A stretch of DNA of 64,000 nt from an uncultured Enterobacterales bacterium. GTDB lineage: Bacteria; Myxococcota_A; UBA796; CAJQPC01. Each line of letters opens with the position of its first letter. The first letter of the stretch is position 1. The notes beneath the pieces were generated by a model. The model did not search any database. It saw only the letters and a list, made by a program, of their open reading frames with translations, and had not been told where the DNA came from. The stretch is from contig CAZFLE010000005.1 in the NCBI GenBank assembly GCA_964519895.1, positions 16,417 through 80,416 of the forward strand, given 5' to 3'. The position numbers were made by a program, and so were the translations under genes. Shown one piece after another: positions 13,950-44,356 of this stretch.

Positions 13950-13973
13950 GGGCAGGAGGCTCTGGCGGAATCA

Positions 13974-14029: not shown

Positions 14030-14034
14030 GCCCG

Positions 14035-15728: not shown

Positions 15729-16325
15729 TCACCCGACCCTTGCCCACACCAGACAGTGGTTGTTCGCCGGCATCGCCACGACCTCTTGCAGCGCCAGCCC
15801 GTGCAGCGCCGCCAGGGCGATCACGTCCACGAGGTCCCGGACCCCCCAGCGGGGGTCACGCTGCTGGAGCGAGCGATCGAAGCGGACGTTGCTGTCCGAC
15901 GTCCACACACCCGCGAAGCGAAACGGCCCATAGAGTACGAACACACCGCCTGGCGCCAGCACGCGCGCCAGCCCCGCGAACAGCCCCTGGGCGCTCTCCC
16001 AGGGCGAGATGTGGATCATGTTGCAGCACACCGCGCCGTCCACGACCCCGACCCCCCAGTCGGTGTCGCAGGTGTCCAGTCGCACCGGCGCCAGCAGGTT
16101 CGGCGCAGCCACGGTGTCCCGCCAGGCGGCGATGCTGGCCAGGGCGTCGGGGTCCCGGTCGGTGGGCTGCCACGCCAGCCCGGGCAGCCGCGGGGCCCAC
16201 CAGGCGCTGTGCATGCCCGTGCCCGCCGAGAACTCCAACACCCGCCCCCTCGCCGGCAACACCCGCCGCAGCACGGCCAGGATCGGGTCGCGGTTCCGCT
16301 CACAGGCGGGCGAGTAGCGCTTCAC
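15729..16325 (-). CDS. DUF938-family class I SAM-dependent methyltransferase (198 aa)
   Basis: 'KRYSPACERNRDPILAVLRRVLPARGRVLEFSAGTGMHS..' matches DUF938. GTG 16325 lies 4 nt after the upstream stop (16330-16332). ATG 16400 is a possible alternative but would overlap the upstream gene by 71 nt. Confidence 0.75.
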   Translation of the reverse strand: MKRYSPACERNRDPILAVLRRVLPARGRVLEFSAGTGMHSAWWAPRLPGLAWQPTDRDPDALASIAAWRDTVAAPNLLAPVRLDTCDTDWGVGVVDGAVCCNMIHISPWESAQGLFAGLARVLAPGGVFVLYGPFRFAGVWTSDSNVRFDRSLQQRDPRWGVRDLVDVIALAALHGLALQEVVAMPANNHCLVWARVG

Positions 16326-16329
16326 CGGC

Positions 16330-19300
16330 TCAGTCCGGGCAGCCCTCGACCACCCAGGTCTCAATGATCGCCAGGGTGGCCTTGTCCAGGAAGGGGCCAC
16401 CGCGAGGCATCTGCTGCCCGGCGCCGCCCACGTCGCCCTGGGTGTTGTTGAGCTTGTGCCAGATGTAGCTCTGGGAGGTGTCCCCGGGCTCGAAGAGGTC
16501 CATGGCCGGCACGTCGATGGAGGCCACGTTCACGTGGTCCACCGTGCCGTTGTCCATGTTGAAGCCACCGCTCGCCGCACCGCTCAGGTGGCAGCCGTCG
16601 CAGTTGGCGTCGAAGATCGGCTCGATGTCCGTGGCGTAGGTGTAGGTGTAGCTGTCCACGCCGTCGCAGTCCTGGTCGATGCCGTCGCCGTTGATCTCGG
16701 TGGCGCCCGGGTTGATGCCGGCGTCGCTGTCGTCGCAGTCGGTGTTGTCCGCCGACGTGTTCGACGGCTGGAGACAGGCCAGGGTGCCGGGGTCGGTGTC
16801 GTCGCCGTAGCTGTCGCCGTCGGCGTCGGCGTACCAGGTGGACCGACCGGTCACGCCGGCGTCTGCGTCGTCGATGTCGCCGTTGCAGTCGTTGTCCACG
16901 CCGTCGCAGATCTCGGTGGCGCCCGGGTTGATGGCGATGTCCCCGTCGTCGCAGTCGACGTCGGACGTGAAGCCGTCGCCGTCGGCGTCGGGCGGGCCGG
17001 CGTCGCAGTCGTCGTTGGCGCTGCCGGGGGTGCCGGAGTCGCCGCTGCCAAAGGTGCTCGTGGCCGCGCACCAGTTGGCGCCGTCGTCGTTCTCGGTGAC
17101 GTCGAGGTGGTCCCCGTCGAGGGAGATCGACGCACCCGCCGTGTTCGGGAATGTGGCTCCCCCGTCGTAGGCGACCTGATCGATGGTCAGGCTGCCGTTG
17201 TACAAGAAGACCTCGTCGGCGAAGTTGGCCAGCCGGTGGGTGCTGCCGTACTCGTGGTCGACCGTCACGCCGCCGTTGGCCGCGGCGTCGCCGTCGATTC
17301 CCAGCACCACGTACTCACCCGCCAACACGGGCACGGACCCAGAGACCTGGACCCACTCGCCCATCACGGCGACCGAGGTGTCGAAGATCTCCAGCCCGTC
17401 CAGCTCGATGGTCACCAGCGTGTTGTTGTAGATCTCGATCCACTCGCCGCGCAGGTCACCGACCGCCACCGGGTTGTGGTGGAGCTCGGTGATGATCAGG
17501 TCCCCTTCGATCAGATCCCCGACCGCCAGGTCCGAGCCGCCCCCGGTGCAGGCGTCGTTGGCGCTGCCCGGGGTGCCCAGGTCCCCGTCGCCGAAGGTGG
17601 AGGTCGCCGCGCACCAGTTGGCGCCGTCGTCGTTGCTCAGATCGTCGAGGGTGTCCGGGTTCAGGCTGAAGCTGGCGCCCGTCGGGTCCGGGAAGGTCAG
17701 GCCATTGTCCCAGGACACGCTGTCGATGATGGTGCTCCCCACCCCCAGGAACAGCTCGTCGGACGCATTGCCCAGGGTGTGCGCACCCCCATAGGTCTCG
17801 GCCAGGCTGACGCCCCCGTTGACGCCCAGGTCGCCGTAGCGCCCGAGCAGCACGTAGGCGCCGGGCTCGACCAGGACCCCGCCAGAGAGGGTGACCAGGT
17901 TGCCCTTGGTCGTGCTGTCGGTGTCGTAGAGCTCGAGTCCGTCCAGGTCCACGGTGCTGCCCGTGGCGTTGTAGAGCTCCATCCACTCGCCGGCGTTGTC
18001 CGGCACGGCGTCGGGGTCGACCATCAATTCCGTGATGACCAGATCGCCCGCCGTCAGGTCGTCGACGGACAGCGCACAGCTGTCGTTGGCCGCGCCCGGG
18101 GTGCCCAGGTCCCCGTCGCCGTAGCTCGACGTCGCCACGCACCAGTTGTTGCCGTCGTCGTTGTCGGTGGCGTTCAGGTGATCGGGATCCAGGATCATCG
18201 CCGCACCGCTCGGGTCCGGGAACGTGAAGCCGTTGTCCCAGGACACGGAGTCGATGACGTCGGTGCCGTTGTACAGGAAGGTCTCGTCGGCCGCATTACC
18301 CAGGGTGTGACCGGTGCCGTAGGCGTAGTCCAGGGTCACGCCACCGTTGGTGGCGACGTCGGCCCTGCGGCCCAGGACCGCATAGGCCCCCGCCGCGACG
18401 AGCACCTGTCCAGAGACCGTGATCTTGTCGGTCTGGGCGGCGACCGAGGTGTCGAAGACCTGGAGTCCGTCCAGGTCGACCACGCCAGCGGTGTTGTTGT
18501 AGATCTCGAACCACTCGCCGCGGTTGTCGGGCACCGCCGACGGCTCCTTCATGATCTCGGTGATGATCAGGTCACCGGCCACCAGATCCGCGACCGCCGT
18601 CCCGCCCCCGCCGCCACCGCAGCTGTCGTTGACCGCGCCCGGTGTGCCCAGGTCACCGGCGCCAAAGGACGAGGTCGCGTCACACCAGCTCGACCCGTCA
18701 TCGTTGCTGGTGGCGTCCTGGCTGGCCGAGGACAGGGAGATCGAAGTGCCGGCCGTGTCGGGCCAGGTGCTGCCGTTGTCGTAGGCGATGCTGTCCAGCA
18801 CGGTGGACCCGTCGGACAGGAAGATCTCGTCGGCGCCATTGCCCAGGGTGTGGGCGAAGCCGTAGGCGTAGTCCAAGGCGACGCCGCCATTGGCGCCGGT
18901 GTCCGAGTTGCGGCCCAGCACCGCCAGCCCGCCGTCGGCGACCACCACGCTGCTGCCCACCGTGACCAGGTTGCCCTGGGTGACCTCGTCGGTGTCGAAG
19001 ATCTGGAGACCCTGAAGGTCCACGTCGACCCCGGCGGCGTTGTAGATCTCGAACCACTCCCCCGCGCCAGCGCCCGAGGCCACGGGCTCTTTGAAGATCT
19101 CGTTGATCACCAGGTCCCCGACCGCCAGCTCGGTGACGGCAAAGGTCGAGCAGCTGTCGTTGGCCGCTCCCGGCGTGCCCAGGTCGCCGTCGCCGTACGC
19201 CGACCGCGAAACGCACCAGCTGGCGCCGTCGTCGTTGCTGGTGGCGTCCTGGCTGGCGCTGTCCAGGCTGATGCTGGCCCCCGTGGGATCGGGGAAGCTC

Positions 19301-19797
19301 AGGCCGTTGTCCCACGCGATGCTGTCGATCACGTCGGTCCCATTGGACAGGAAGAGCTCGTCGGAGGCGTTGCCGAGCACGTGGGCGACGCCGTAGGCGT
19401 AGTCGACGGGCGCCCCGCCGTTGGTGGACTGGTCGGTCTTGCGCCCGAGCACCACGTGGCTGCCGGCATCCACGATCAGGGTGCCTGAGACGGTGAAGCT
19501 GTTGCCCGGCGACGCCACGCTGGTGTCGAAGACCCGGAGTCCGTCCAGGTCTACGTTGAGGCCGCTCGCGTTGTAGATCTCGAACCACTCGCCGGCTCCG
19601 TTTGCAACGGCGCTGGTGTCGATCATGACCTCGTTGATCACCAGGTCGCCCACAGCGAGATCGGCCACGAAGAGCTCGGCCGGCCCGGTGTCCTTGGCCG
19701 AGGCCCAGAAGCCCCCCAGATCCGCGGAGTCCAGGGACAGGTCTTCAGAGCACCCGGCCAGCAGAGCGAGGAAGACGACGGGACGAATGCCCTTCAT
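16330..19797 (-). CDS. Lipoprotein (1,155 aa) with five lamin-tail-domain (LTD) repeats, two MopE-type metal-binding motifs and a C-terminal PSCyt1-like CxxCH domain
   Basis: ATG 19797 'MKGIRPVVFLALLAGC' (lipobox) has GGAG 7 nt upstream. The 610-aa N-terminal part of the track ORF is antisense to the 19939 gene. There are five repeats of 'GDL[VI]I[NT]E...GEWFEIYN...VDLDGL'. Also 'DADGDGFTSDVDCDDGDIAINPGATEICDGVDNDC' and a C-terminal 'IEPIFDANCDGCH...QMPRGGP...IETWV'. Confidence 0.8.
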   Translation of the reverse strand: MKGIRPVVFLALLAGCSEDLSLDSADLGGFWASAKDTGPAELFVADLAVGDLVINEVMIDTSAVANGAGEWFEIYNASGLNVDLDGLRVFDTSVASPGNSFTVSGTLIVDAGSHVVLGRKTDQSTNGGAPVDYAYGVAHVLGNASDELFLSNGTDVIDSIAWDNGLSFPDPTGASISLDSASQDATSNDDGASWCVSRSAYGDGDLGTPGAANDSCSTFAVTELAVGDLVINEIFKEPVASGAGAGEWFEIYNAAGVDVDLQGLQIFDTDEVTQGNLVTVGSSVVVADGGLAVLGRNSDTGANGGVALDYAYGFAHTLGNGADEIFLSDGSTVLDSIAYDNGSTWPDTAGTSISLSSASQDATSNDDGSSWCDATSSFGAGDLGTPGAVNDSCGGGGGGTAVADLVAGDLIITEIMKEPSAVPDNRGEWFEIYNNTAGVVDLDGLQVFDTSVAAQTDKITVSGQVLVAAGAYAVLGRRADVATNGGVTLDYAYGTGHTLGNAADETFLYNGTDVIDSVSWDNGFTFPDPSGAAMILDPDHLNATDNDDGNNWCVATSSYGDGDLGTPGAANDSCALSVDDLTAGDLVITELMVDPDAVPDNAGEWMELYNATGSTVDLDGLELYDTDSTTKGNLVTLSGGVLVEPGAYVLLGRYGDLGVNGGVSLAETYGGAHTLGNASDELFLGVGSTIIDSVSWDNGLTFPDPTGASFSLNPDTLDDLSNDDGANWCAATSTFGDGDLGTPGSANDACTGGGSDLAVGDLIEGDLIITELHHNPVAVGDLRGEWIEIYNNTLVTIELDGLEIFDTSVAVMGEWVQVSGSVPVLAGEYVVLGIDGDAAANGGVTVDHEYGSTHRLANFADEVFLYNGSLTIDQVAYDGGATFPNTAGASISLDGDHLDVTENDDGANWCAATSTFGSGDSGTPGSANDDCDAGPPDADGDGFTSDVDCDDGDIAINPGATEICDGVDNDCNGDIDDADAGVTGRSTWYADADGDSYGDDTDPGTLACLQPSNTSADNTDCDDSDAGINPGATEINGDGIDQDCDGVDSYTYTYATDIEPIFDANCDGCHLSGAASGGFNMDNGTVDHVNVASIDVPAMDLFEPGDTSQSYIWHKLNNTQGDVGGAGQQMPRGGPFLDKATLAIIETWVVEGCPD
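17010..19671 (-). repeat. Five tandem ~531-bp coding repeats (LTD units of ~177 aa)
   Basis: Each unit starts near '..L.VGDL[VI]I.E' and ends 'GDLGTPG[AS][AV]ND[SAD]C'. The repeats are diverged at the DNA level but collinear. Confidence 0.75.
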
Positions 19798-19938
19798 GGC
19801 GGGCTCCGTGGAAGAGGAAGGCGGAAGGTCAGGCGAGTGTCGCACCGGACCTCGATCCTTCACAACCGAGGTGCCGCCCCCGGGTGGCTTGACAGGGAAG
19901 AGGTCGGGTCCTACCCACCCCTCCAAGCTGGAGATGCG

Positions 19939-21843
19939 ATGACAGCGGCTGTCCTGGGTCTGGCTGCGATCTTTGTCACCGGGTGTGGATCCCCAGCGGC
20001 AGCGGGCGGCGGACCGGACGCGTCGACCCTGGTGATCGCCCGCGACACGGTGCCGCTCACCAATGCCTCCTTGCTGGCCGACGACGGCACCCAGAAGGGC
20101 CCTGGCGATCGCATCGCCGGCAACGGCGTGCCCGACGGCTGGCTCGTGCGCATGAACGCCGGCGCGGTTCGGTTCGCTCCCGCCGCGACGCCTGACGGCC
20201 AGGGCGTGCGGCTCTCCTACGACAAGGGCGCCAAGGGCAGCCTGGTCGGCTCGGCGGTTCCGGTGAAGCCCGGCGAGACCTACGAGCTGCGGGTCAAGCT
20301 CGACGCGGGCGGGGTGGAGCACCCCGGCTCGATCGGGCTGGCCTTCAAGGGCGCTGGCGGCCTGCTCGACACCGAGACCCACCGCCTGCGCACCGAGACC
20401 CCGGGGTGGTCCGAGATCGCAGTGCGCGGCACGGCCCCCGAAGGCGCACAGCAGCTGATCGTGCGGGCCGTGTTCACCGGCGCCAAGGCCGCGGGCAGCG
20501 TGGTCATGGGTCCGGTGGTCCTGGAGCGCTCCACAGCGACCAGCCGCAGCAAGACCTTTCCGCTCCAGCGCATCCTGCTCGTCACGATCGAGACCTTTCG
20601 CTGGGACCACGCCAGCCTGTACGGGTATGGCCGGGACACCACACCGACCCTGGAGCGGCTGGCTCGTGAAGGCGCCGCCTTCGACCAGCACTATGTCCAG
20701 GCCCCCTACACGCGCCCGAGCCTGAGCTCGATGGTCACGTCGCGGTACCCGGTGTCGCTGGGCATCACCGACAACGTGCCGCCGCTGCCGGACAGCGCCT
20801 ACACCGCCGCCGAGATCTTCGCCGACCGCGGCTACGTGACATCGGGCTTCCTGGCCCAATTCATCCTGGGCCAGCACTACGGCTTCACCCAGGGCTTCCA
20901 CTACTTCTTCAACCACAAGAACGACACCGTCACCGAGACCGTGACCCGGGACCTCTACCCCTGGCTGGAGCGGCACCGGGCGGACAACACCTTCACCTGG
21001 ATGCACCTGTTCGATCCCCACGGTCCCTACCGTCCGACCTCGGACTACGCCGGCCGCTACCGGGACGACGCGCTGTACCGGAGCGACACCGAGACGCTGA
21101 CGACGGGCACGGGCAAGGCCACCGGGCCCTTCATCCCCGGCTACGTGGCCGACCCCGGTGCCCTCGAGCGGCGGCACTACGTGTCCAACTACGACGCCGA
21201 GATCCGCTATGTCGACGACCAGCTCGCCAAGCTGGTCGCCTGGCTCGAACAGACCGACCAGGCCAAGCACACCCTGCTGGTCGTCACGGCCGACCACGGG
21301 GAGTCCATGACGGACCACGGGCGCTACTTTGCCCACGGCTCGCTCTACGAGCACGACCTGCACGTGCCGATGCTCATCTGGGCCCCGGGTCGGATCGCCC
21401 CGGGAACCCGAGTCGCGGCCCGGTCCAGCCACCTGGACATCGTGCCGACCCTGTTGGACTACGCCGGAGCCGACCAGCCCCCGGGCCTCAAGGGCCACAG
21501 CCTGCGGGGCCTGATCGACGGGGCGACCCAAGCCCCGGAGCCCTTCACCATCGCTGTGACGGGCGCCGGCGCCCGGGAACAGGTCGCCGTGATGAGCGAC
21601 TCCGATCTGAAGCTCATCGTCGACCACCAGGGCCAGCCGGTCGAGGTCTATGCGCGCGCCAAGGACCCGGACGAGACCCGCAACCTGGTGAGCAGCCGGG
21701 GAGACGAAGCCCGCAAGCTGGCCACGGCGTACCGAGGATGGCTGGCGGATCAGCTCGCAGACGACGCGCGCACCACCACCGAGGACCGGGATCTCAGCGA
21801 CGACGAGATCGAGGCGCTGCGGGCGCTGGGCTACATCGAGTGA
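19939..21843 (+). CDS. Sulfatase-fold (alkaline-phosphatase superfamily) lipoprotein, paralog 1 (634 aa), with a CBM4_9-like N-domain and Thr in place of the FGly Cys
   Basis: ATG 19939 'MTAAVLGLAAIFVTGC' has GGAG 5 nt upstream. 'VPDGW...' marks a CBM-like domain. 'LLVTIETFRWDH', 'APYTRPSLSSMVTSRYP' (T-x-P-S instead of C-x-P-x-R) and 'VVTADHGES'. C-terminal 'EIEALRALGYIE'. Confidence 0.75.
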   Translation: MTAAVLGLAAIFVTGCGSPAAAGGGPDASTLVIARDTVPLTNASLLADDGTQKGPGDRIAGNGVPDGWLVRMNAGAVRFAPAATPDGQGVRLSYDKGAKGSLVGSAVPVKPGETYELRVKLDAGGVEHPGSIGLAFKGAGGLLDTETHRLRTETPGWSEIAVRGTAPEGAQQLIVRAVFTGAKAAGSVVMGPVVLERSTATSRSKTFPLQRILLVTIETFRWDHASLYGYGRDTTPTLERLAREGAAFDQHYVQAPYTRPSLSSMVTSRYPVSLGITDNVPPLPDSAYTAAEIFADRGYVTSGFLAQFILGQHYGFTQGFHYFFNHKNDTVTETVTRDLYPWLERHRADNTFTWMHLFDPHGPYRPTSDYAGRYRDDALYRSDTETLTTGTGKATGPFIPGYVADPGALERRHYVSNYDAEIRYVDDQLAKLVAWLEQTDQAKHTLLVVTADHGESMTDHGRYFAHGSLYEHDLHVPMLIWAPGRIAPGTRVAARSSHLDIVPTLLDYAGADQPPGLKGHSLRGLIDGATQAPEPFTIAVTGAGAREQVAVMSDSDLKLIVDHQGQPVEVYARAKDPDETRNLVSSRGDEARKLATAYRGWLADQLADDARTTTEDRDLSDDEIEALRALGYIE

Positions 21844-23660
21844 GACTTCGGGTTCGGCGCCTGGCGGCCCTCGCCGGCGTGGTCCTGGCCCTGACCCAGC
21901 TGGCGGCCGACACCCCCGGTGCGAGCGTGCGCAGCTGGCAGCTGGAGCTCTTCAACGAGACGCTGCTGCTCGACAACGGCACGTCCTTTGGCTTCGGCAA
22001 CGAGCGGGCGCGGGACCGGATCCCCGACGGCTGGTGGACCGTGCCGACCCAAGGGGGCGTCCTGGCCCGCTCGGCCGAAGCCGAAGACGGCGGCGTCGCG
22101 GTGCGCCTGGTCGCCCCGGCCGGGGTGGACTCCAAGCTCTACAGCGCCCGGATCCCGGTCCGGGCGGGCCGGGCCGTGACGCTGTCGACCCGGGTGCGGG
22201 CCCGCCCGGGGCTGCAACATGGCGGCACGCTGTCCCTGCGCTTCATCGGAGACAAGGGGCACCTGGGCACGCTCAAGCGCCGGGTCCCCCTGACCGAAGG
22301 CGGCTGGCAAGACCTGAGCTTGACGGCCAACGCCCCCCACGGGGCGGGTGCCGTCGTGCTGGAGTGGTCGTTCTTCCATGACGGGGGCGGCCCGGGGGGC
22401 TGGATCGAGCTGGAGCCCCTGCGGCTGACCGCGTCGCGGGTCGAGACCGACCCCACGGCACCCGCCCTGCGGCGAATCCTGCTGGTGACCCTGGGGTCGA
22501 CCCGGGCCGACCACGCGGACGGCTACGGCCGAGACACGACAGCGGTGCTGGACCGGCTCGCCGCCGAGGGCACCCTGTTCACGAACCACCGCAGCGTGCA
22601 CGCCCGGACCGTGCCGAGCCTGGCTGCCTTGTGGACCGGGTGGCTGCCCGCCCAGACCGACCTGGACCTGTGGGGGGCCCAGGCGCCCGCGACGGCTGCC
22701 ACACGCCTGGCCGGGGCCGGGTACGCCACCGGTGCCTTCCTGGCCCACAACCGGCTGGGCGCCACCCGCGGCTTCACCCGCGGGGTGCACCACCCCTGGC
22801 AGCTCGACAGCCGGGCCACCGCTTCCCAGGTCAACGCGGTCGGCTTGCCCTGGTTGGCGTCCCACGCCGACCAGGCCGTGTTCCTGTGGGCCCACTACAA
22901 CGATGGGGAGCGGCCCTTCACGCCCCCCGCACCCTATGACACTCGGTTCACCGACGACGCCCTGTGGCGCAAGGACACGCTGCAGCTCCGCCGCGGGTCC
23001 GAGGTCCACGAAGGCCGGCCCCTGATCCCCGAGCCGGTCTACGAACCCGGCCGCCTGGCTCGCCGCCACTACGTGGCCCGCTACGACGGCGAGCTGGCGT
23101 CCGCCGACCACGCCCTGGGGTCGCTGGTGACGCTGCTCGAAGAACTGGCCCTGGCCCAGGACACCCTGGTGGTGGTCACCGCCGACCACGGGATCTCGCT
23201 GACGGAGCACGGCAGGTACTTCTCGACCGGCTCGGTCTACGACCACGACCTGCGGGTGCCCCTGGTCCTCTGGAGCCCCGGGCGGGTACCCGCCGGCCAG
23301 CGGATCGATGTGGCCACCGATCACCAGGACGTCCTGCCCACGCTGTTGGACTTCGCGGGGCTGCCAGGAGGGGACCTGCCTGGCCGGAGCCTGCGGCCGC
23401 TGCTCGATGGACCCGAAGGCGCCGCGGCCTGGTCCCCCCGCGTCCACGTCGCCACCACCGGCACAGGCGAACACACCCGCCATGCCGTCTGGGGCACGGG
23501 GTCCTGGAAGGTCGTCACCGACGCCGGGTGGAAGCCACTGGCGCTCTACGACCTGGACACCGACCCCGGGGAGCTCAGAGACGTGCTCTGGCGGCGACCG
23601 GGTGTCGCTCGGACGCTGGCGGACCAGGGCGCCCCCGCGCTGGAGAGCCGCCTGCGCTGA
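21840..23660 (+). CDS. Sulfatase-fold secreted protein, paralog 2 (606 aa), with a CBM-like N-domain and a degenerate metal site
   Basis: GTG 21840 overlaps the upstream TGA (GTGA). The N-terminus 'VRLRVRRLAALAGVVLALTQLAA' is signal-like. 'IPDGWW', 'LLVTLGSTRADH' (acidic ligand replaced by Gly-Ser), 'HARTVPSLAALWTG' and 'VVTADHGIS'. Confidence 0.7.
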   Translation: MRLRVRRLAALAGVVLALTQLAADTPGASVRSWQLELFNETLLLDNGTSFGFGNERARDRIPDGWWTVPTQGGVLARSAEAEDGGVAVRLVAPAGVDSKLYSARIPVRAGRAVTLSTRVRARPGLQHGGTLSLRFIGDKGHLGTLKRRVPLTEGGWQDLSLTANAPHGAGAVVLEWSFFHDGGGPGGWIELEPLRLTASRVETDPTAPALRRILLVTLGSTRADHADGYGRDTTAVLDRLAAEGTLFTNHRSVHARTVPSLAALWTGWLPAQTDLDLWGAQAPATAATRLAGAGYATGAFLAHNRLGATRGFTRGVHHPWQLDSRATASQVNAVGLPWLASHADQAVFLWAHYNDGERPFTPPAPYDTRFTDDALWRKDTLQLRRGSEVHEGRPLIPEPVYEPGRLARRHYVARYDGELASADHALGSLVTLLEELALAQDTLVVVTADHGISLTEHGRYFSTGSVYDHDLRVPLVLWSPGRVPAGQRIDVATDHQDVLPTLLDFAGLPGGDLPGRSLRPLLDGPEGAAAWSPRVHVATTGTGEHTRHAVWGTGSWKVVTDAGWKPLALYDLDTDPGELRDVLWRRPGVARTLADQGAPALESRLR

Positions 23661-23666
23661 ACCGGC

Positions 23667-25790: not shown

Positions 25791-25830
25791 CTCCGCCTCC
25801 CTGCGGGCCAGCCCCCCTCGCATACACGGT

Positions 25831-25847
25831 TTGGCACACCCTGCCAA
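25831..25847. promoter_or_regulatory. Palindrome TTGGCA-N5-TGCCAA in the divergent promoter region
   Basis: Perfect 6-bp arms, centred in the 125-bp spacer between the GT-C gene start (25790, minus) and the paralog-3 start (25916, plus). Confidence 0.3.
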
Positions 25848-25885
25848 GCTTCGGCGGGCCGATCCGCCGGCTCTCCAGAATCGAA

Positions 25886-25893
25886 TAGAGTCC
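25886..25893 (+). promoter_or_regulatory. TAGAGTCC motif (candidate -10-like element) upstream of the 25916 gene
   Basis: The same octamer recurs at 44330-44337 (plus) and 56316-56309 (minus), each 22-31 nt upstream of a lipoprotein start codon. It is flanked here by direct GAATCG repeats. Confidence 0.3.
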
Positions 25894-25915
25894 TCCGAAT
25901 CGTGCCCACCTGGTC

Positions 25916-28342: not shown

Positions 28343-28373
28343 CCGTGCTGGCTGACACCGCGTCGGTGACCCC

Positions 28374-30884: not shown

Positions 30885-30903
30885 TCGGTGGTCTATCGCC
30901 AGG

Positions 30904-31992
30904 TCACTCGCAGGGCCCGGGCGCATCAGCGCCGGCCGAGAGCGCGTAGAGCAGCTCGGAGTGCTCGCTGTAGAAGCGCACGTCCTCCAACCGACGGCTG
31001 GCCGTGCAGACCGAGACCCAGGCAAAGCCCCCGACCTGGTCGGTCTGGTAGGTGACCGGCAGCTCGCCCTCCAGAGCCCGCAGCCCGGCCGTCGCGCCGC
31101 TGATGAGCTGGGGCGACGCGCACAGCTCCGACGTCATGAACAGGGCCAGATTGTGATCGTGGCCGCTGATCACCAGGTCCGCGTGGCCACAGACGAAGTC
31201 GTCATAGAAGACCTTGAGGCAAGCCCCGGCATCCCGCCCAGCCGCTGTGCTCGGGCGGTGGGTGTCCTTGCAGCTCAGGTCGTCGCCCGCAGGCCGGTTG
31301 GCGTAGTCCCCGACCACGCCGTGCTGGCCGTTGGACAGGTAGGCGTGGTGTCCGAGGGCGACTCGGAAGCGGTCGGTCTGGTCCCGAAAGGCGGGCCCCA
31401 GGGTCGTCCATGCGCTCGACTCCCCGCCGCCGCCCTGGTCGTCGATGCCCCACATGATCCGGTGGGTGTCCAGCGCCAACAGGGACAGCCCCGGCGCGGG
31501 CTCGCCGAGCCACTGCCAGGCCGGCATCTCGAAGTGGGTGTCCCGGGTCGCGCTGTAGCTCAACTGGTACCCCGCCCGCACGTCATCGAAAGCCTCGCCG
31601 CCCTCGCACTCCCCGTCCAGGGACTCCCGGTAGTCGTGGTTGCCCAGCACAGCGTGCCAGGGCATGCCCAGGCTGCCGAAGGGCACCTCGAAGTCCTCGT
31701 CAAAGGAGGGATCGTCGACGCTGTCGACGCCACAGGTGTAGAAGAGATCCCCGGCCATCAGCCCGAAGTCACAGCCCTTCTGGGCGCACACCCGGGCCAA
31801 GGCGTCGACCACACCGTCCCGAATGTCGGTCCTGACACCGCTGTCCCCGACCACGACGAACCTGGCCCGGACCGGGGGCTCGTCGCCCGGGTCGGTGGTC
31901 TCGATTGTGCCCGTCTGTCCCGTCGGAGGGGCCCGCGAGGAGTCCCCCGTGGCCGGACCGCCCGAGTCGCACGCCAGCAGCAGGAGCCACAT
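30904..31992 (-). CDS. Calcineurin-like metallophosphoesterase lipoprotein (362 aa)
   Basis: 'MWLLLLACDSGG', then 'FVVVGDSG', 'MAGDLFY', 'VLGNHDY', 'ALGHHAY' and 'VISGHDHN'. An alternative GTG 32025 overlaps the upstream TGA (GTGA). The remainder of track ORF 30904..33462 is out-of-frame shadow sequence overlapping the sulfatase gene on the same strand. Confidence 0.8.
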   Translation of the reverse strand: MWLLLLACDSGGPATGDSSRAPPTGQTGTIETTDPGDEPPVRARFVVVGDSGVRTDIRDGVVDALARVCAQKGCDFGLMAGDLFYTCGVDSVDDPSFDEDFEVPFGSLGMPWHAVLGNHDYRESLDGECEGGEAFDDVRAGYQLSYSATRDTHFEMPAWQWLGEPAPGLSLLALDTHRIMWGIDDQGGGGESSAWTTLGPAFRDQTDRFRVALGHHAYLSNGQHGVVGDYANRPAGDDLSCKDTHRPSTAAGRDAGACLKVFYDDFVCGHADLVISGHDHNLALFMTSELCASPQLISGATAGLRALEGELPVTYQTDQVGGFAWVSVCTASRRLEDVRFYSEHSELLYALSAGADAPGPCE

Positions 31993-32021
31993 GCCGCCAG
32001 TGTAGTCAACCGCAGGCCCGA

Positions 32022-33509
32022 TCACCCCGCGGGGGACGGGACCGGCTCCTCGGGGCCCGGACCCAGCGCAGTCAGCTTCTGGTCCAGCTGCTGCCGCAGT
32101 TCGGCGATGCGGTCCTCGTGCCCCCCGGAGACGGCCAGGTTGTGCAGCTCGTAGGGGTCGTCGTCCAGGTCGTAGAGCTCCAGTCCGTCGTCGTAGGCCG
32201 GGGAGACCACGAGCTTGTAGCGGTCCGTGCGCAGGCCGTGCATGGTCGGCCGAGCCGGCCACTTGACGTCGGCAAAGTGCTGGAGCAACAGGTGTTTCCG
32301 CCAGTCCCGGACCCGTCCCCGCCCCTTGCGGGCCAGGAGCGGCACCAGGCTGCGGCCGTGCACCGGCGGGGGCTCGGCGATCCCGCCCAGCTCGAACAGC
32401 GTCGGCGCCAGGTCGACCCCGCTGACCAGGCGAGCATCCCGACGCCCGACGGGCACACCGGGGCCCCGCAAGATCAGCGGGACACGCACGCTCTCTTCGT
32501 AGAGGAGCTGCTTGCCGCCCGGCAAGAAGGCGTGCTCGCCGAGCAGCACGCCGTTGTCGCTGGTGAAGATCACCACCGTGTCCTGGGCCAGGCCGAGCTG
32601 GTCCAGGGTGTCGCACACCCGCCCGACGCTCTCGTCCACGCTCAGCAGACACCGGGCGGTGTCCATGTGGATCGGGTGGCGAGGCTGCCACGGCCGGGGA
32701 GGGATGCTGGCGGGGATCGGCACCCCCGCGTCGCGCCGCTTGGCCCAGGCATGCCGTGTGCGCCCCCAGGCCACCCCCGCCCGCTGGTACTCGGGCTTGT
32801 CGGCCAGGTCGTCGGTCCAGCTGACCGGCTCGGGGAACTGCTCGGTGGGAAAGGCGGCGGCGTGTCGGGCCGCGGGGACCGGGCGCCCGTGCACGCCCTT
32901 GTGGGACAGCAGCAGGGCAAAGGGTTTGTCGGAGGTCCGGCCTTGCAGCCAGGCCACCGTGCGGTCCGTGAGCAGGTCGGTGATGTAGCCGGGCTCGGTG
33001 AAGAACTTCTCGCCGTCGTAGAGCTCGGGGTCGTTGTAGAGCCCCTGGCCCCGGAAGCTCAGCCAGTGGTCCCAGCCGGGCTTGGGCCGGTTGTAAGGAC
33101 GCATGTGCCACTTGCCGAAGCAGGCCGTCTCGTAGCCTCCGCCCTGGAGGACCTGGGCCCAGGAGGGTACGTCGGTCGCGATGTGCTGGGACGAATTCTT
33201 GAAGACCCGGGTGCGCTGGGGCTGACAGCCGGTCAGCATCGTGGCCCGCGAAGGCGAGCACAGGGACACGGCGACAAAGGCGTTGTCGAAGATGGTCCCG
33301 CCCGCGGCCAGGCGATCGATGTGGGGCGTGGGAATCCAGGGGTGGCCCATGCAGCCGAGCCAATTCCAGCGCAGGTCGTCGACGAGCACGAACACGACGT
33401 TGGGTGGCCGGGCGGACGCCAACGCGGGCCCGCCAACCAGCCCCACGGCAGCGCCGCCACACAAGCCGGCCAGGGTCTCGCGGCGGGTGGGTCGTGAGGG
33501 AGTGGACAT
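32022..33509 (-). CDS. Formylglycine-type (Cys) sulfatase with a Tat signal (495 aa)
   Basis: 'MSTPSRPTRRETLAGLCGGAAVGLVGGPALASA' (twin-Arg), 'VVFVLVDDLRWNWLG', 'SLCSPSRATMLTG' (canonical C-x-P-S-R) and 'IFTSDNGVLLGEH'. Confidence 0.88.
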   Translation of the reverse strand: MSTPSRPTRRETLAGLCGGAAVGLVGGPALASARPPNVVFVLVDDLRWNWLGCMGHPWIPTPHIDRLAAGGTIFDNAFVAVSLCSPSRATMLTGCQPQRTRVFKNSSQHIATDVPSWAQVLQGGGYETACFGKWHMRPYNRPKPGWDHWLSFRGQGLYNDPELYDGEKFFTEPGYITDLLTDRTVAWLQGRTSDKPFALLLSHKGVHGRPVPAARHAAAFPTEQFPEPVSWTDDLADKPEYQRAGVAWGRTRHAWAKRRDAGVPIPASIPPRPWQPRHPIHMDTARCLLSVDESVGRVCDTLDQLGLAQDTVVIFTSDNGVLLGEHAFLPGGKQLLYEESVRVPLILRGPGVPVGRRDARLVSGVDLAPTLFELGGIAEPPPVHGRSLVPLLARKGRGRVRDWRKHLLLQHFADVKWPARPTMHGLRTDRYKLVVSPAYDDGLELYDLDDDPYELHNLAVSGGHEDRIAELRQQLDQKLTALGPGPEEPVPSPAG

Positions 33510-33569
33510 GTCGCTCCGTGGCGTGGCTGTCGCCCTAACGCTTCACACCGCCCCCAGGGTCCCCCCGGA

Positions 33570-36035
33570 TCACCCTTCCGTGAAGTCGCCCAGCCGGACC
33601 GTCTGCCAGGCGTCGGCCGCCGGCGGCGGCGCTTCGAGGTCGAGCTGGCGAAGCACCCGGGTGGGGGCGCCGACCGGGTTCTCGACCGTCACCGTCAGCG
33701 TGCGCCACCGCACGTCGGGCGACACCACCAGGGGCAGGCTCTGGCGAGCCGGATCGGGCGCCACCTCGATCGAAGAGACCTGGCCGGCCAGGGGCTCCAG
33801 GGTGAGCTGCACCGAGGGCCCGGCATCGCCCGGAGGCCCGCGGAGCTTCACGCCGAGCTGACTGAGGGACTGCATCAGCGACCCGTTGCCGCGCACCCTC
33901 ACAGCCATGGTGAAGCGATCACCGGGGTAGAGCCACACGTCTCGACGGCACTCCTTGATGACCCTCGCAGGGTCCAGGCCCAGGGTCCAGGTGCGCTGGG
34001 CGACCGGGGGGCCTTGGGCCAGGGGCGAGAAGCGCACGCTGTCCGCCAGGTGCACGAAGCGTCCGGGGCCCGCTGCGACCGGGCGAGGGCCCACACGGCG
34101 CTCCAGGGCCGTCGAGCCCTCGGTGAGGGTGAGCGGGGAGCACCTCCGGTAGGTCAGGTGGTCGGTCAGCGCGAGCGGCGGCACCGCCGGGTCGTCTGGC
34201 AGGGCCAGGGCGTAGACCCCCTGCCCCGCCGGAGACGGGTCTCCGGAAGCCGGCAGCGCCGGCGGCGGCTGGGCGAAGCGCACGGCGCTGGCGTCCAGCA
34301 AGGGGACCGTGCCGCCGAGCACGTCGAAGGCTGGCGGCAGGAGGTCCTGGGTGATGCCCTGGCCCGCGACCCGCAGGCTGGCGACCGCCGCGTGCGCCCC
34401 GTCGGCGGGCGAGGACAGGACCAGGGCGCTGCCCCCGGTCGTGGCCGGGCCCTCGAACCTCACCGCATGGCGACCTGCGGTCTCCAGCGCCACCTCGTGC
34501 TTGCCGAGGGCCAGGGAGACCTGCCCTGCCCCGAAGACCTCCACCACCAGCTCCAGGGACACCGTGCCGTCGCCGGCCAGCGCACCGGCCGGGACGTCGA
34601 GCACCGTGCGGGTGCCGGCCAGGTGCCACACCAGCGCCCGATCCCCGGCGTCGACGACGGGGTCGTCCGGCACGGACACGCCGATGGTCAGCCCTTCGGT
34701 GGACGCCGTCGTCAAGATCAGCACCCGTTCTCCGACCATCGCCGCCGGCTCACAGGCGTTGTCCTTGCGACGAAGGCGCCGGGCTGGCAGGGCGCTGCCC
34801 CCGATCCGAGTGACCTGCACGGGAGATGCCTCGACCGGCCAGCCGCGCGCGAGCATGGCGCCTTGCCCGATGGTCGCGAACGGTGGCTTGCGCAGGACCC
34901 GGGTGCAGTCCGAGCTCGCGGGAACCTGGAGCGTTGCGCCGACCGCGGCGCCCTCTCGGCGAACCCGCAGGCTGGCGGCCGGCCGCGCGAGTGGTCCCCC
35001 GGAGAGCGCACCCACGTCGGAGAGGCCCTGAGCGATCAGGGGGGCGATCTTGCGGCGACCGCTGTGGCCCAGGTGCACCCGATCGTTGAAGTCGCCGGCG
35101 GAGAGATCCGCCGCGCTCAGGTCCACATAGGCGGCGCCGCGGGACCGCAGGTGGTCCTTGAGGGCGTCCTCTTCGTCTCGGAGACCGGGACCGCGCTGGG
35201 CTCCTCCGGGAGACTCCGGCAGCCGCAGGAAGATCACCTGGGCGCCGGCATCGCGCACCACGTCCACCAGCTCCGGGACCAGGGTGTGCTCGACCGGCAA
35301 CGGTCCCTGGGTGTACCGGCGCTGGGTCACGGTGCGCCGCTCGGGTGCGACGATCGGGGTGCCGGCGCGGTGCCGATCCATGTCGATGGCGTCTTCGTCG
35401 GCGAAGACCTCTGCGTTGGCCAGCGCCAGGGCCTCGGCGCCTCGATCGTGGGGCCCACCGTCTCCAGGCGTCGCGAGTCCCACGGCGCCGTGGATGAACC
35501 AGTCGAGCAGCCCCTGGCGCAGGGCTGTGCGACGCGTCCTGGCCCGCGCGCTCGGACCATCGACCGCCGCGGCGCCCTGGAGCTTGGCGGTCAGGGCGGC
35601 CTCGTCCCCCACCAACAGAGCATCGAGCGCTTCCGCGTCGCCTTCGCCGTCCACCCCGGATCCGACCAGCACGTCCAGGGTGCCCGCGACCACCACCACC
35701 TCGGGCTCGACCCGGGGCAGCACGTGGTTGCGCAACAGGGCGTACCAGGCCGGCGTGCCCGACGAAGGCACCCAGGTCAGGGCCAGTTGGTCGGGCTCCA
35801 GGCCCAGCGCGGCACCGACCCGCGTGAGCTCAAAGGCGCGATCTGCCGACGAGTTCCCCACCACCAGGATGCGCGGCGAGCGCCCGTCCAGGGCTCGGAG
35901 GACCCGGTCGGGGGTCACCGGGTCGCTGGCTGGCAGCGGACGCGTGAAGCCCCAGACCGCACCGGCCGCGAGCACGACCAGCACCGCGGCGGCCAGGGCC
36001 GCCCAGCCCCTAGAACTGGAAGTAGATGAAGTCAT
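33570..36035 (-). CDS. Membrane-anchored SGNH-like acyl-transfer partner of the MBOAT (821 aa) with a large C-terminal beta-rich domain
   Basis: ATG 36035 'MTSSTSSSRGWAALAAAVLVVLAAGAVWGF' overlaps the MBOAT 3' end by 26 nt. 'RILVVGNSSADRAF' (block I-like) and 'FNDRVHLGHSGRRKIAPLIA' (DxxH block V-like). About 460 aa of unrecognised C-terminal sequence. Confidence 0.55.
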   Translation of the reverse strand: MTSSTSSSRGWAALAAAVLVVLAAGAVWGFTRPLPASDPVTPDRVLRALDGRSPRILVVGNSSADRAFELTRVGAALGLEPDQLALTWVPSSGTPAWYALLRNHVLPRVEPEVVVVAGTLDVLVGSGVDGEGDAEALDALLVGDEAALTAKLQGAAAVDGPSARARTRRTALRQGLLDWFIHGAVGLATPGDGGPHDRGAEALALANAEVFADEDAIDMDRHRAGTPIVAPERRTVTQRRYTQGPLPVEHTLVPELVDVVRDAGAQVIFLRLPESPGGAQRGPGLRDEEDALKDHLRSRGAAYVDLSAADLSAGDFNDRVHLGHSGRRKIAPLIAQGLSDVGALSGGPLARPAASLRVRREGAAVGATLQVPASSDCTRVLRKPPFATIGQGAMLARGWPVEASPVQVTRIGGSALPARRLRRKDNACEPAAMVGERVLILTTASTEGLTIGVSVPDDPVVDAGDRALVWHLAGTRTVLDVPAGALAGDGTVSLELVVEVFGAGQVSLALGKHEVALETAGRHAVRFEGPATTGGSALVLSSPADGAHAAVASLRVAGQGITQDLLPPAFDVLGGTVPLLDASAVRFAQPPPALPASGDPSPAGQGVYALALPDDPAVPPLALTDHLTYRRCSPLTLTEGSTALERRVGPRPVAAGPGRFVHLADSVRFSPLAQGPPVAQRTWTLGLDPARVIKECRRDVWLYPGDRFTMAVRVRGNGSLMQSLSQLGVKLRGPPGDAGPSVQLTLEPLAGQVSSIEVAPDPARQSLPLVVSPDVRWRTLTVTVENPVGAPTRVLRQLDLEAPPPAADAWQTVRLGDFTEG

Positions 36036-37419
36036 TGGCCAGATCACGGAAGAACACCACCACACCCACCGCCAGCGCGACCCAGGCACCGGTCTGGAGC
36101 GGCAGGGCGGCGGGACGGTCCTCGAGGCGGGGCAGGATCAGCTCCTGGATGGCCATCGCGATGACCAGCACCAGGCTGCAGAACGCGCACACCCCCAGCA
36201 GCGCCCAGGTGGCGGTCCACTGCTCGGGGGCCGCCTGGAAGGGACTCAGGGTGAAGAAGTGGAGCAGTCGCGAGATGTCCGTCTCGCGGAAGATCAGCCA
36301 GCCGACGTTGGTGAAGCCGAACATGAGCACGATGGCGGCCAGGCCGCTGCCGGGCAGGTCCTTGACCGCCTGGGGGATGCGGGGCACGACCAGCCGGTAG
36401 CCGGTGAGCAGCGCGGCATGGAACGCCCCCCAGAGCACGAAGGTCCAAGCCGCGCCGTGCCACAGGCCACTCAGGAGCATGGCGATGAAGGCCGAGCGGG
36501 TCGCGACCCAGAACCCACCCCGAGAACCGCCCACCGCGAAGTAGACGTAGTCCCGGATCCACGACGAGAAGGAGATGTGCCAGCGCCGCCAGAAGTCCGA
36601 AGGGTTCTTGGCGATGTAGGGGTGGTCGAAGTTGACCATCAGCTCGAAGCCGAGAATCCGGGCCAGGCCCCGGGCGATGTCCGAGTAGGCCGAGAAGTCA
36701 GCCAGGATCTGGATGGCGAACCCGAGGGTGGCTGCCCAGATCAGCGGGCCCGAGGGGTCCTCCAGGATGAAGACCTTGTCCACATAGGGGGCGATGGTGT
36801 CGGCCACGACCACCTTCTTGAATGCCCCCCACAGGGCCAGGCTGAGGCCGCTGCGAACCGCCACCCAGGAGAAGACCCGGTCGAGCTCCATCTGGGGCAG
36901 GAGGTTCCGCGCCCGCTCCACAGGCCCGGCCACGAGCTGCGGGAAGAAGCTGACGAACACCACGTAGTCCAGGAAGTTCGTCCTGGGCTCCAGCTGCCCC
37001 CGGTAGATGTCCAGGGTGTAGCTCATGGTCTGGAAGGTGAAGAAGCTGATGCCCACGGGCAGGAAGATGCCCAGGGTGTGGAGGCTGGTCTCCACCCCCA
37101 GCAAGCCAAAGACCCCGATCACGTTCTCGATGAAGAAGTCGCAGTACTTGAACGTGCCCAGCATGCCCAGGTTGCCGCACAGGCTCAGGACCAGGAACAG
37201 GCGCTTGCGGGACGGCAGCCGGACCATGCCCAGCCCGCAGAAGTAGTCCAGGGTGGCGGAGCCGTAGAGCAGCAGCAGGAACCAGGGGTGGACCCAGCCG
37301 TAGAAGATGGCGCTGGAGACCGCGAGCAACCCGTTCTGGAGGCGTCGGCTCGGCATCGACCAGTACAGGCCGAACACCAGCACGATGAACACCAGGAATT
37401 CAACCTGCACAAAGGTCAT
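36010..37419 (-). CDS. MBOAT family O-acyltransferase (AlgI/DltB/PatA-like, 469 aa)
   Basis: Polytopic. 'FFTFQTMSYTLDIYRG', 'FFPQLVAGPVERA' and 'NPSDFWRRWHISFSSWIRDYVY' (conserved His). Confidence 0.9.
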   Translation of the reverse strand: MTFVQVEFLVFIVLVFGLYWSMPSRRLQNGLLAVSSAIFYGWVHPWFLLLLYGSATLDYFCGLGMVRLPSRKRLFLVLSLCGNLGMLGTFKYCDFFIENVIGVFGLLGVETSLHTLGIFLPVGISFFTFQTMSYTLDIYRGQLEPRTNFLDYVVFVSFFPQLVAGPVERARNLLPQMELDRVFSWVAVRSGLSLALWGAFKKVVVADTIAPYVDKVFILEDPSGPLIWAATLGFAIQILADFSAYSDIARGLARILGFELMVNFDHPYIAKNPSDFWRRWHISFSSWIRDYVYFAVGGSRGGFWVATRSAFIAMLLSGLWHGAAWTFVLWGAFHAALLTGYRLVVPRIPQAVKDLPGSGLAAIVLMFGFTNVGWLIFRETDISRLLHFFTLSPFQAAPEQWTATWALLGVCAFCSLVLVIAMAIQELILPRLEDRPAALPLQTGAWVALAVGVVVFFRDLANDFIYFQF

Positions 37420-42319: not shown

Positions 42320-42336
42320 GGGGCCACGGTACTCCC

Positions 42337-44337: not shown

Positions 44338-44356
44338 CCTCCCCTGGGGATCCGCC

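Follow-up and report, generated by a model that had tools for sequence, protein, structure and literature searches.

An exported enzyme set around an MBOAT and an SGNH-like partner as a candidate glycan-tailoring system in an uncultured Myxococcota-type bacterium

Osmoregulated periplasmic glucans (OPG) are modified by the phosphoglycerol transferase OpgB, the phosphoethanolamine transferase OpgE and the AT3 succinyltransferase OpgC, together with the glucanases OpgG and OpgD and the GT2 enzyme OpgH, and the lipoteichoic acid (LTA) toolkit of Firmicutes holds LtaS with its five transmembrane (TM) helices, DltB and DltD, and the GT-C protein YfhO. The SGNH-partnered bacterial MBOATs PatA, AlgI and WssH have in common a C-terminal FxYxxF motif, described in a 2025 study as an "acyl shuttle", in which the tyrosine is auto-acetylated from acetyl-CoA and the acetyl group is then passed to a serine of the partner, with an acetyl-tyrosine intermediate found in PatA (PMC12148441). 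Here we describe ten consecutive genes, G1 to G10, at positions 16330-37419 of a 64-kb window, i.e., the whole stretch of DNA that was analysed (contig CAZFLE010000005.1 of assembly GCA_964519895.1, positions 16,417 to 80,416), from an uncultured bacterium that appears to be Gram-negative and, to judge by a secretome rich in MopE motifs, a high G+C content and the names of the nearest metagenome-assembled genomes, probably of Myxococcota type. We propose, with somewhat better than even confidence, that the interval is a conserved and modular set of periplasmic-face enzymes that tailors one extracytoplasmic glycan and is centred on an MBOAT-SGNH O-acyltransferase pair, G10 and G9. By analogy, the ensemble resembles OPG decoration and the LTA toolkit of Firmicutes in its logic, not in orthology.

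G10 scores 79 bits against the Pfam MBOAT model (PF03062, cutoff 27) and matches the DltB structures 6bug and 8jem (E 3e-21), its RWHISFS, which carries the invariant His281, falling on RWHMSLS of 6bug. According to the TM scan its hydrophobic segments continue at residues 358-465, beyond the core aligned to DltB, and at the very end of the protein stands FIYFQF, which by sequence fits the FxYxxF acyl-shuttle motif exactly. DltB is the best match of G10 in NCBIfam as in the PDB, yet the NCBIfam score of 139 bits lies far below the cutoff of 375, and G10 differs from Dlt in having a shuttle motif of its own and no use of DltX.

The adjacent gene encodes a protein with one TM helix, a domain of about 300 residues and about 480 β-rich residues in two tandem repeats. 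Neither G9 nor G6 matches any Pfam or NCBIfam family, and G9 has no match to the PatB, ALGX (PF16822) or DltD profiles; its short-form homologues are likewise without a Pfam or NCBIfam family. In 25 diverse G9 N-domains the only invariant residues are G60 and S62 of a G-N/D-S motif, D305 and H321, with D318 of D-x-x-H nearly so, a pattern that reads as the signature of SGNH blocks I and V. Every top PDB match of the G9 profile is an SGNH protein, and the alignments fall on those blocks, at non-significant scores (E 0.09-1); one G9 homologue has a weak Lipase_GDSL_2 match (E 0.0019). The C-terminal tandem domains gave no significant match in a PDB profile search. Judged by these residues, G9 is the founder of an unannotated SGNH-like family, and we propose that it serves as the acyl acceptor/transferase partner of G10.

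Among the closest described systems is PatA/PatB, which O-acetylates peptidoglycan in Gram-negative bacteria. The invariant MBOAT histidine is followed in both by a C-terminal hexapeptide (FIYFQF in G10, FIYANF in NgPatA); the adjacent partner has a single TM anchor and the Ser and D-x-x-H of SGNH; and since no carrier of the DltC/DltX type is present, an acyl-CoA donor is expected, as for PatA. In one relative (L008; related loci are numbered with the prefix L) a GDSL esterase stands beside the pair, recalling Ape1. Unlike PatB, G9 is not found by a PatB profile and in its long form carries two large β-domains, and the recurrent GH-A, GT-C and threonine-type sulfatase-fold neighbours described below are not part of a Pat cluster. 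The alginate (AlgI/J/F/X) and cellulose (WssH/I/G) systems also use an MBOAT to acetylate an exported polysaccharide, and AlgX recalls G9 in joining an SGNH-like to a carbohydrate-binding domain; G9, in contrast, has the classical Ser-first order of SGNH motifs, and the window holds no ALGX-domain (PF16822), AlgF (PF11182), alginate synthase or cellulose synthase gene. Two related loci that carry G2 orthologues (L014 and L015) have true AlgI, AlgJ and AlgF together with an AlgX-like gene where the window has G10 and G9. Taken together, the features on the MBOAT side are those of the PatAB/AlgIJ/WssHI type, whereas the partner lies outside the described partner families. An earlier note on this DNA could match the locus to no described pathway; a literature search likewise found none that combines these parts, although the MBOAT-SGNH part does correspond to the PatA/PatB-type acyl shuttle (PMC12148441). 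A true Dlt or Alg system was considered and rejected on the DltB score, on the lack of DltA, DltC and DltX, and on the lack of ALGX and AlgF proteins.

With the MBOAT as bait 80 metagenomic loci were retrieved, and in about 50 of them a G9-like gene adjoins the MBOAT, as found by tblastn, clustering and hidden Markov model (HMM) search; most of the others are contigs that end at the MBOAT. A scan of metagenomes with peptide patterns derived from G9 found nothing. G9 homologues come in a long form of about 820 residues and a short form of about 350-420 residues that consists of the N-domain only, and therefore the N-domain is the conserved partner. The MBOATs paired with G9-like proteins are 57-71% identical to G10, and the AlgI-type MBOATs of L014 and L015 35-39%. 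The two genes overlap by 26 nucleotides, the N-terminal MTSSTSSS of G9 being an out-of-frame reading of the C-terminal NDFIYFQF and stop of G10, and a similar N-terminus occurs in the G9 homologues of at least seven loci (L008, L101, L106, L110, L136, L144, L170), i.e., the overlap is conserved. The pair of L008 (GCA_964457335.1) has after it a second G9 paralogue of full length and before it a divergent gene for a 462-residue Lipase_GDSL_2 protein, which by analogy with Ape1 could possibly be a de-acylating counterpart.

The neighbours of the pair recur in relatives to differing degrees. A close relative (76% identity to G4) keeps the DUF938 gene and G1 to G6 colinear up to the point where its contig ends, and G1 and G3 were seen only there. 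Full-length orthologues of G2, with 41-67% identity, were found only in L014-L020, loci anchored on the threonine-type proteins, and partial ones in L145 and L148. The order in L014 is a G2-like gene, an NPP phosphodiesterase, a G6-like gene (33%) and a sulfatase (30% to G8), all tightly coupled, beside an AlgX-like gene that is divergent from an AlgJ-AlgF-AlgI cassette; L015 brings together, within 10 kb, the DUF938 gene, a G2 orthologue and a cassette of the same Alg type, and L060 has a G5 orthologue (38% identity over 734 residues). L145 and L148 line up a G2 orthologue (N-domain HMM E 6e-43), a GT-C-like gene, a G6-like gene, an esterase-like gene, a G9-like gene and an MBOAT, the GT-C-like protein having a C-terminal domain of G4 type. 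Shorter combinations are G9-MBOAT-G6 (L116) and G6-MBOAT-G9 (L146), with an NPP gene added in L117 and L121. Directly beside the MBOAT lie threonine-type sulfatase-fold genes in L104, L118, L120, L123, L131 and L135, and cysteine-type sulfatase genes in L153. The operon of L174 is headed by a G6 orthologue of 46% identity and contains three GT-C-type proteins, the last being a full-length G4 orthologue (30%, 707 residues).

Of 1.84e9 protein clusters the family of G6 accounts for only 4619, or about 2.5e-6. In about 70 loci it was found three times, non-redundantly, beside the MBOAT, and its presence next to relatives of G9/G10, G2 and G4 is far beyond chance. In a Pfam census of 106 neighbours of MBOAT-G9 pairs the alkaline-phosphatase superfamily came out on top (Phosphodiest 6, Sulfatase 5); a link between these genes and the MBOAT is only suggestive. 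The robustly linked core is G10 with G9, which G6 often joins, and proteins of the G2/G5 type and GT-Cs join in several lineages. The synteny check asked for in the earlier note thus bears out the G10/G9 core and the re-association of G6-like, G2-like and GT-C genes; it does not do so for G1, G3, G7 and G8, nor for four distant GT-C homologues.

Between the G6 and G4 orthologues of L174 (2875-7815) stand two pairs of genes, each for a multi-TM protein of about 535 residues with a CDDA(Y/F)I motif and a lipoprotein of about 287 residues, with no Pfam match. By analogy the motif recalls the DD of GT-C enzymes of the Emb type. A related protein of L145, 868 residues long, has a redoxin domain at its N-terminus.

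G6 is a secreted protein. A word-indexed search returned one or two relatives for G6 and G9, a single distant one for G6, whereas an exhaustive search gave the 4619 cluster representatives mentioned above, 983 of them below 1e-30; the proteins of this family have about 800 residues. The distant relative sits in an exopolysaccharide locus with Wzz, BY-kinase, GT2 and Wzy genes. Across 30 members of the family N371, E372, D507, H509 and E553 are invariant, relatives have weak Pfam matches to GH5 (PF00150; 14 of 30) and GH42 (4 of 30), and a PDB profile search with the family returned only clan GH-A enzymes, aligned on the N-E pair (GH5 4tuf with E 1.5e-4, mannanases, GH42). For the assignment of G6 as a GH-A hydrolase there is support from motifs and profiles.

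The four sulfatase-fold proteins of the interval were aligned with G8 as the internal canonical reference, and G2 also to the solved sulfatase 9ihk. In G2, G3 and G5 a threonine stands exactly at the formylglycine position, that of G2 on the nucleophile position of 9ihk. The C/S-x-P-x-R motif is absent from all three, which read T-R-P-S-L, T-V-P-S-L and T-L-P-S-S; the motif arginine is gone, both sulfate-binding Lys/His positions (K-x-H and the second Lys) are replaced, and D-H is found where a sulfatase has D-N. Given their remaining active-site residues (E218, T258, H361 and D452-H453 in G2; D303, T343 and D518-H519 in G5), G2 and G5 therefore have what reads as an LtaS/EptA-like catalytic residue set. 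G3 is possibly a non-catalytic, degenerate paralogue, because Gly-Ser takes the place of the first metal ligand and the histidine of DPH is absent. The best full-length profile matches of the threonine-type proteins are choline and aryl sulfatases and not EptA or LtaS. The earlier call of an LtaS/EptA/OpgB-type threonine nucleophile stands for the threonine and the metal ligands (degenerate in G3). As the proteins have no membrane domain and are by overall sequence nearer to S1 sulfatases than to LtaS, EptA or OpgB, a role as transferases has no better support than one as phosphodiesterases.

SulfAtlas family S1 leaves out threonine-type PF00884 proteins, a large uncharacterised class of "sulfatase-like hydrolase/transferase" (PMC5066984). 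In 80 related genomic loci 109 of 119 sulfatase-fold matches combine a threonine in the nucleophile position with the motifs DPH and DH. The G2/G3 subgroup differs from this wider class in having an extra N-terminal β-sandwich, common to the GT-C proteins, and was found only in a few Myxococcota-like lineages (L014-L020, L145).

Two further observations concern the threonine-type proteins. G2 and G5 both end in LRALGYIE followed by the stop, which G3 does not, and the pattern L[RK][AS]LGY[ILV] is the extreme C-terminus of most threonine-type homologues (L014-L092; Acidobacteriota, Planctomycetota, Verrucomicrobiota and Myxococcota). In many phyla between one and four genes of NPP type (PF01663-like) come after a threonine-type gene, which makes up arrays of alkaline-phosphatase-superfamily paralogues.

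G4 is a multi-TM GT-C protein that scores 49.8 bits against PMT_2 (PF13231, cutoff 26.1), and in the TM scan its acidic motif HPDEP (D61, E62) lies in the first loop, after TM1. Its C-terminal domain is homologous to the N-domain of the G2/G3 family (hhalign probability 89%, E 2e-6, 116 columns). The same pair aligned with few sequences reached a probability of 8.7% and became convincing after more sequences were added. The domain also matches the C-terminus of the GT-C-like protein c39 of L145 (E 5e-4), and the shared β-sandwich has no significant match in a PDB profile search. Among GT-C homologues the linkage to threonine-type sulfatase genes is seen only in G4 orthologues and in the L145 type, and a general pairing of GT-C with threonine-type sulfatase genes, which had been considered, was dropped since four distant GT-C homologues have unrelated neighbours.

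In the mechanism that we propose, His281 of G10 would serve to load Tyr466 of the C-terminal FIYFQF with an acyl group, in all likelihood the acetyl of cytoplasmic acetyl-CoA, and the shuttle would hand this group to Ser62 in the membrane-anchored SGNH-like domain of G9. G9 would then pass it to a sugar hydroxyl of a polymer that its two C-terminal β-domains may hold. The GH-A-type glycosidase G6 would cut or trim the glycan, G4 would add a sugar from a polyprenyl-phosphate donor, and the lipoproteins G2 and G5 would add or remove phosphoester substituents, G3 being probably non-catalytic; through the shared β-sandwich the threonine-type lipoproteins may recognise the same ligand as the GT-C. 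The sulfatase G8 and the phosphoesterase G7 would be lineage-specific accessories. We infer the acyl donor, the substrates, the direction of the phosphoester chemistry and the action of all parts on one polymer. By analogy this would follow the logic of OPG, a periplasmic glycan with phospho-substituents placed by threonine-nucleophile PF00884 enzymes, O-acylation by a membrane acyltransferase and a periplasmic glycosidase. All parts are non-orthologous, however: an MBOAT-SGNH pair stands for OpgC, a GH-A enzyme for OpgG/D and a GT-C for OpgH, and the threonine-type lipoproteins lack the membrane domain of OpgB and OpgE. The classes of the LTA toolkit (threonine-nucleophile sulfatase fold, MBOAT with SGNH-like partner, GT-C) are analogously all present; unlike LtaS, G2, G3 and G5 have no five TM helices and are nearer S1 sulfatases, and the host is apparently Gram-negative, of Myxococcota type.

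Several observations weigh against such a tailoring set. The genes of the interval alternate in orientation and fall into at least four transcription units. The 64-kb window holds no gene for a polymerase, synthase, flippase or exporter, nor for a sugar-nucleotide or polyprenyl-phosphate-sugar synthase; Wza, Wzx, Wzy and GT2 genes are found in none of the 106 neighbours of the pair, where the contexts are mostly unrelated housekeeping genes. As the pair is often alone, a ubiquitous polymer could be its acceptor. Genes of the alkaline-phosphatase superfamily are modestly enriched near the pair (11 of 169 genes at most two positions away as compared to 4 of 188 farther off; Fisher p=0.06). The scan of G2, G3 and G5 shows a lipobox or signal peptide and no other TM segment, hence no multi-pass domain of LtaS/EptA/OpgB type, and neither sulfatase-fold nor MBOAT nor G6 genes are neighbours of the four distant GT-C homologues (P0006, P0007, P0009, P0014). 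The likeness of G8 to catabolic GlcNAc-6-sulfatases belongs here as well, and the AlphaFold2 models, each from a two-sequence alignment, have a mean predicted local distance difference test score (pLDDT) of 31 for G6 and 38 for G9. A classical exopolysaccharide locus was rejected, as no synthase, Wzx/Wzy or Wza gene is present in the window or among the 106 pair neighbours.

These points bear on three other explanations. It is rather unlikely, though we take it seriously, that the interval is a catabolic or scavenging island in which G2, G3 and G5 to G8 are exported hydrolases acting on foreign sulfated or phosphorylated glycans or teichoic-acid-like polymers, as in a predatory or saprophytic host, with the MBOAT-G9 pair and the GT-C as unrelated neighbours. 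The nearest structures of G8 are from mucin/glycosaminoglycan GlcNAc-6-sulfatases of Bacteroides, G7 is purple-acid-phosphatase-like, the threonine-type proteins are soluble or lipoproteins, as hydrolases are, and their genes form arrays with NPP-type phosphodiesterase genes in Acidobacteriota, Verrucomicrobiota and others; the missing biosynthetic polymerase and export genes (in the window and among the 106 neighbours) and surroundings rich in secreted proteins would also suit an island. However, genes for a transporter, a TonB/SusCD-like receptor, a regulator or cytoplasmic sugar catabolism are all missing, several lineages again have G6-like and G2-like genes together with GT-Cs and the MBOAT-G9 pair, which is of biosynthetic type, the G2/G3 module is common with the GT-C, and a G6 homologue lies within a locus for exopolysaccharide synthesis.

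Were the pair a peptidoglycan O-acetyltransferase like PatA/PatB, with the rest of the interval unrelated, the PatA architecture and C-terminal FxYxxF of G10, the membrane-anchored SGNH-like partner, the occurrence of the pair mostly alone among housekeeping genes, as for a ubiquitous acceptor, and the Ape1-like placing of a GDSL esterase in L008 would all be accounted for. G9 is not PatB, ALGX or DltD by any profile, its long form has about 480 extra β-domain residues without PDB relatives, the recurrent neighbour G6 (GH-A) is not a peptidoglycan-type hydrolase family, and the architectures of L145, L116 and L146 would be left unexplained; we regard this possibility as improbable. The least probable explanation, to which we give very little weight, is chance juxtaposition in a genome rich in secreted enzymes, where unrelated genes are kept together in close relatives by recent ancestry. 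It draws on the full G1-G6 colinearity being confined to the relative with 76% identity to G4, on distant GT-C homologues without the neighbours, on an alkaline-phosphatase-superfamily enrichment that is non-significant alone and on the alternating gene orientation. Against it, rare families (G6, the N-domain type of G2, and G9) co-occur in shuffled order where the MBOAT is 45-54% identical, the β-sandwich is common to G2/G3 and the GT-Cs, and the translational couplings are conserved. The glycan-tailoring set centred on G10 and G9 is the reading that we prefer.

The gene model was derived as follows. The window is about 71% G+C, shadow open reading frames (ORFs) are long and abundant, and real genes were told from them by third-position GC frame plots. 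These plots give ten genes in the interval and not the eleven of the earlier note, and the same ten appear in independent public gene calls for four further assemblies (ENA, Logan contigs) of this uncultured organism. A lipobox or signal peptide, a Tat signal or TM segments are found by sequence scan in all ten products, so that the exported or membrane character claimed before for ten of eleven products holds, at a corrected count. The minus strand carries three units, G1 with the DUF938 gene, G4, and G10-G9-G8-G7; the plus strand carries G2-G3 and G5-G6 (31 nucleotides from the end of G5 to the start of G6). All the junctions that had been reported can be read in the sequence: the stop and start of G2 and G3 overlap in a GTGA (ATCGAGTGAGAC at 21840); the stops of G3, ending at 23660, and G4, beginning at 23667, are convergent with 6 bp between them; the G9 ATG at 36035 lies 26 nucleotides within G10, whose stop is at 36010-36012; and a candidate GTGA overlap of G8 and G7 is present (GGGGTGATC at 32022-32025). 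The likelier start of G7 is an ATG at 31992: four of five public gene calls use it, and the product then begins as a lipoprotein with MWLLLLAC. The families with Pfam support are LTD/MopE, Sulfatase (four genes), PMT_2, Metallophos and MBOAT. The chemistries first assigned were largely borne out by Pfam and motifs, the GH-A call for G6 and the SGNH call for G9 through invariant residues and weak profile matches. An Rfam scan of the window found no regulatory RNA, and a scan for promoters and terminators gave no signal above shuffled expectation.

The remaining genes of the interval are less conserved. G1 contains five lamin-tail domains and, in addition, two Cys-rich motifs of MopE type; its synteny extends to the close relative only, it is absent in L014, L015 and L145, and it is probably outside the conserved core. 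By the same kind of comparison G7 and G8 are lineage-specific accessories and not conserved core. G7 has the full metallophosphoesterase motif set GD, GDxxY, GNHD and GHDH (VVGDSG, AGDLFY, LGNHDY, LGHH, SGHDH) and matches purple acid phosphatases in the PDB (E ~1e-8); no homologue was found in the divergent loci, where non-homologous phosphoesterases take its place (NPP in L014, L117 and L121; a HAD-like acid phosphatase in L015). G8 has all S1 hallmarks (DD, CSPSR, KWH, DN, GGK), and its nearest structures are the Bacteroides GlcNAc-6-O-sulfatases 7p24 (E 2e-73) and 5g2v (4e-71). A G8-like sulfatase (30% identity) recurs only in the L014 operon, with other cysteine-type sulfatases in L153. 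Downstream of G1 and outside the interval, a DUF938 methyltransferase-like gene lies near G2 orthologues in three genomes, that of the window, that of the close relative and L015, where the identity is 67% and the G2 orthologue lies about 3 kb away. Coordinates are collected in Table 1.

Table 1. Coordinates of the genes, motifs and related features (window positions unless a related locus is named).
Feature	Position	Strand	Description
G1	16330-19797	-	1155-residue lipoprotein, divergent from G2; Pfam LTD 185 bits, Cu-binding_MopE 66 bits
G2	19939-21843	+	634-residue lipoprotein; N-terminal β-sandwich and sulfatase fold; Pfam Sulfatase 184 bits
G2 active site	20710-20712 (Thr258)	+	E218, Thr258, H361, D452-H453
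G2 C-terminus	21820-21843	+	LRALGYIE and stop
G3	21840-23660	+	606 residues; G2 paralogue, 38% identity over full length; Pfam Sulfatase
G3 active site	22494-22499 (Gly-Ser)	+	Thr257 and D-H kept; first metal ligand replaced by Gly-Ser; His of DPH lost
G4	23667-25823	-	GT-C of about 707-718 residues (PMT_2, GT39/83-like), multi-TM; C-terminal β-sandwich
G4 acidic motif	25638-25643	-	D61-E62
G5	25922-28342	+	806-residue lipoprotein; sulfatase fold with extra N- and C-terminal domains; Pfam Sulfatase 129 bits
G5 active site	26948-26950 (Thr343)	+	D303, Thr343, D518-H519
G5 C-terminus	28319-28342	+	LRALGYIE and stop
G6	28374-30884	+	836 residues, secreted, GH-A-clan-like
G6 N371-E372	29484-29489	+	putative acid/base
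G6 E553	30030-30032	+	putative nucleophile
G7	30904-31992	-	362-residue lipoprotein metallophosphoesterase; Pfam Metallophos PF00149 31.6 bits (cutoff 21.5)
G8	32022-33509	-	495 residues, Tat-exported canonical S1 sulfatase; Pfam Sulfatase 192 bits
G8 CSPSR	33246-33260	-	sulfatase motif
G9	33570-36035	-	821 residues; N-terminal TM anchor, SGNH-like domain, two tandem β-rich domains (CSPL..EDG and W(L/V)YPG motifs)
G9 G60-N-S62	35850-35858	-	G-N/D-S motif
G9 D318-R-V-H321	35073-35084	-	D-x-x-H motif
G10/G9 overlap	36010-36035	-	26 nucleotides; MTSSTSSS (G9), NDFIYFQF and stop (G10)
G10	36010-37419	-	469-residue MBOAT
G10 His281	36577-36579	-	invariant histidine
G10 FIYFQF	36013-36030	-	C-terminal, with Tyr466
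DUF938 gene	15729-16400 (start uncertain)	-	methyltransferase-like, downstream of G1; Pfam DUF938 243 bits
DUF938 gene of L015	6378-6971		
L008 side genes	7067-8455; 12469-14961	-; +	Lipase_GDSL_2 protein and second G9 paralogue
Thr-type and NPP arrays	just downstream of 10001-11400		L025, L032, L035, L043-L047, L050, L063, L077, L080
Giant ORF	3-13970	-	more than 4656 residues, runs off the window start
Second LTD protein	39293-42784	-	1163 residues
RoxA-like gene	42337-44409		di-haem cytochrome c peroxidase-like
PSD/PSCyt-domain protein	46242-48599	+	DUF1592/1585/1588, weak matches
DUF1501 protein	48601-49833	+	

Elsewhere in the window, the giant ORF at the window start has a strongly A-rich coding strand (AT skew to -0.47), an eCIS_core/DUF4157 domain with a HELTH zinc-protease-like motif near its N-terminus, and looks like a polymorphic-toxin-like protein. 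A second LTD protein near the locus combines lamin-tail, F5/8 type C, chitobiase C-terminal-like and CotH kinase-like domains. The genes for the PSD/PSCyt-domain and DUF1501 proteins form a Planctomycete-type pair, upstream of which lie the RoxA-like gene and a gene for an FG-GAP/ASPIC protein.

Beyond this one genome, it is possible, and we put it forward as a tentative thought well short of an even chance, that a glycan of the periplasm or the surface, as yet undescribed, is made by several Gram-negative lineages, Myxococcota-like and others. Such a glycan would be built or extended by GT-Cs of the G4 and "DDAYI" types, trimmed by the 800-residue GH-A family, O-acylated by G10-G9 and substituted with phosphoesters by threonine-type lipoproteins, and would be OPG- or teichoic-acid-like with non-orthologous parts. 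The locus changes no principle, and its worth lies in well-defined experiments. For the G9 family and the GH-A-like G6 family of about 800 residues, with more than 4600 representatives, neither of which has a Pfam or NCBIfam model, it offers a testable functional context. The nearness of threonine-type genes to the pair and the binding module that they have in common with the GT-C provide a route to the function of a large class mis-annotated as sulfatases. The acyl-shuttle model is recent and was established for PatAB and Dlt, and if it is applicable here, G10-G9 would be a new MBOAT-SGNH system in many environmental bacteria.

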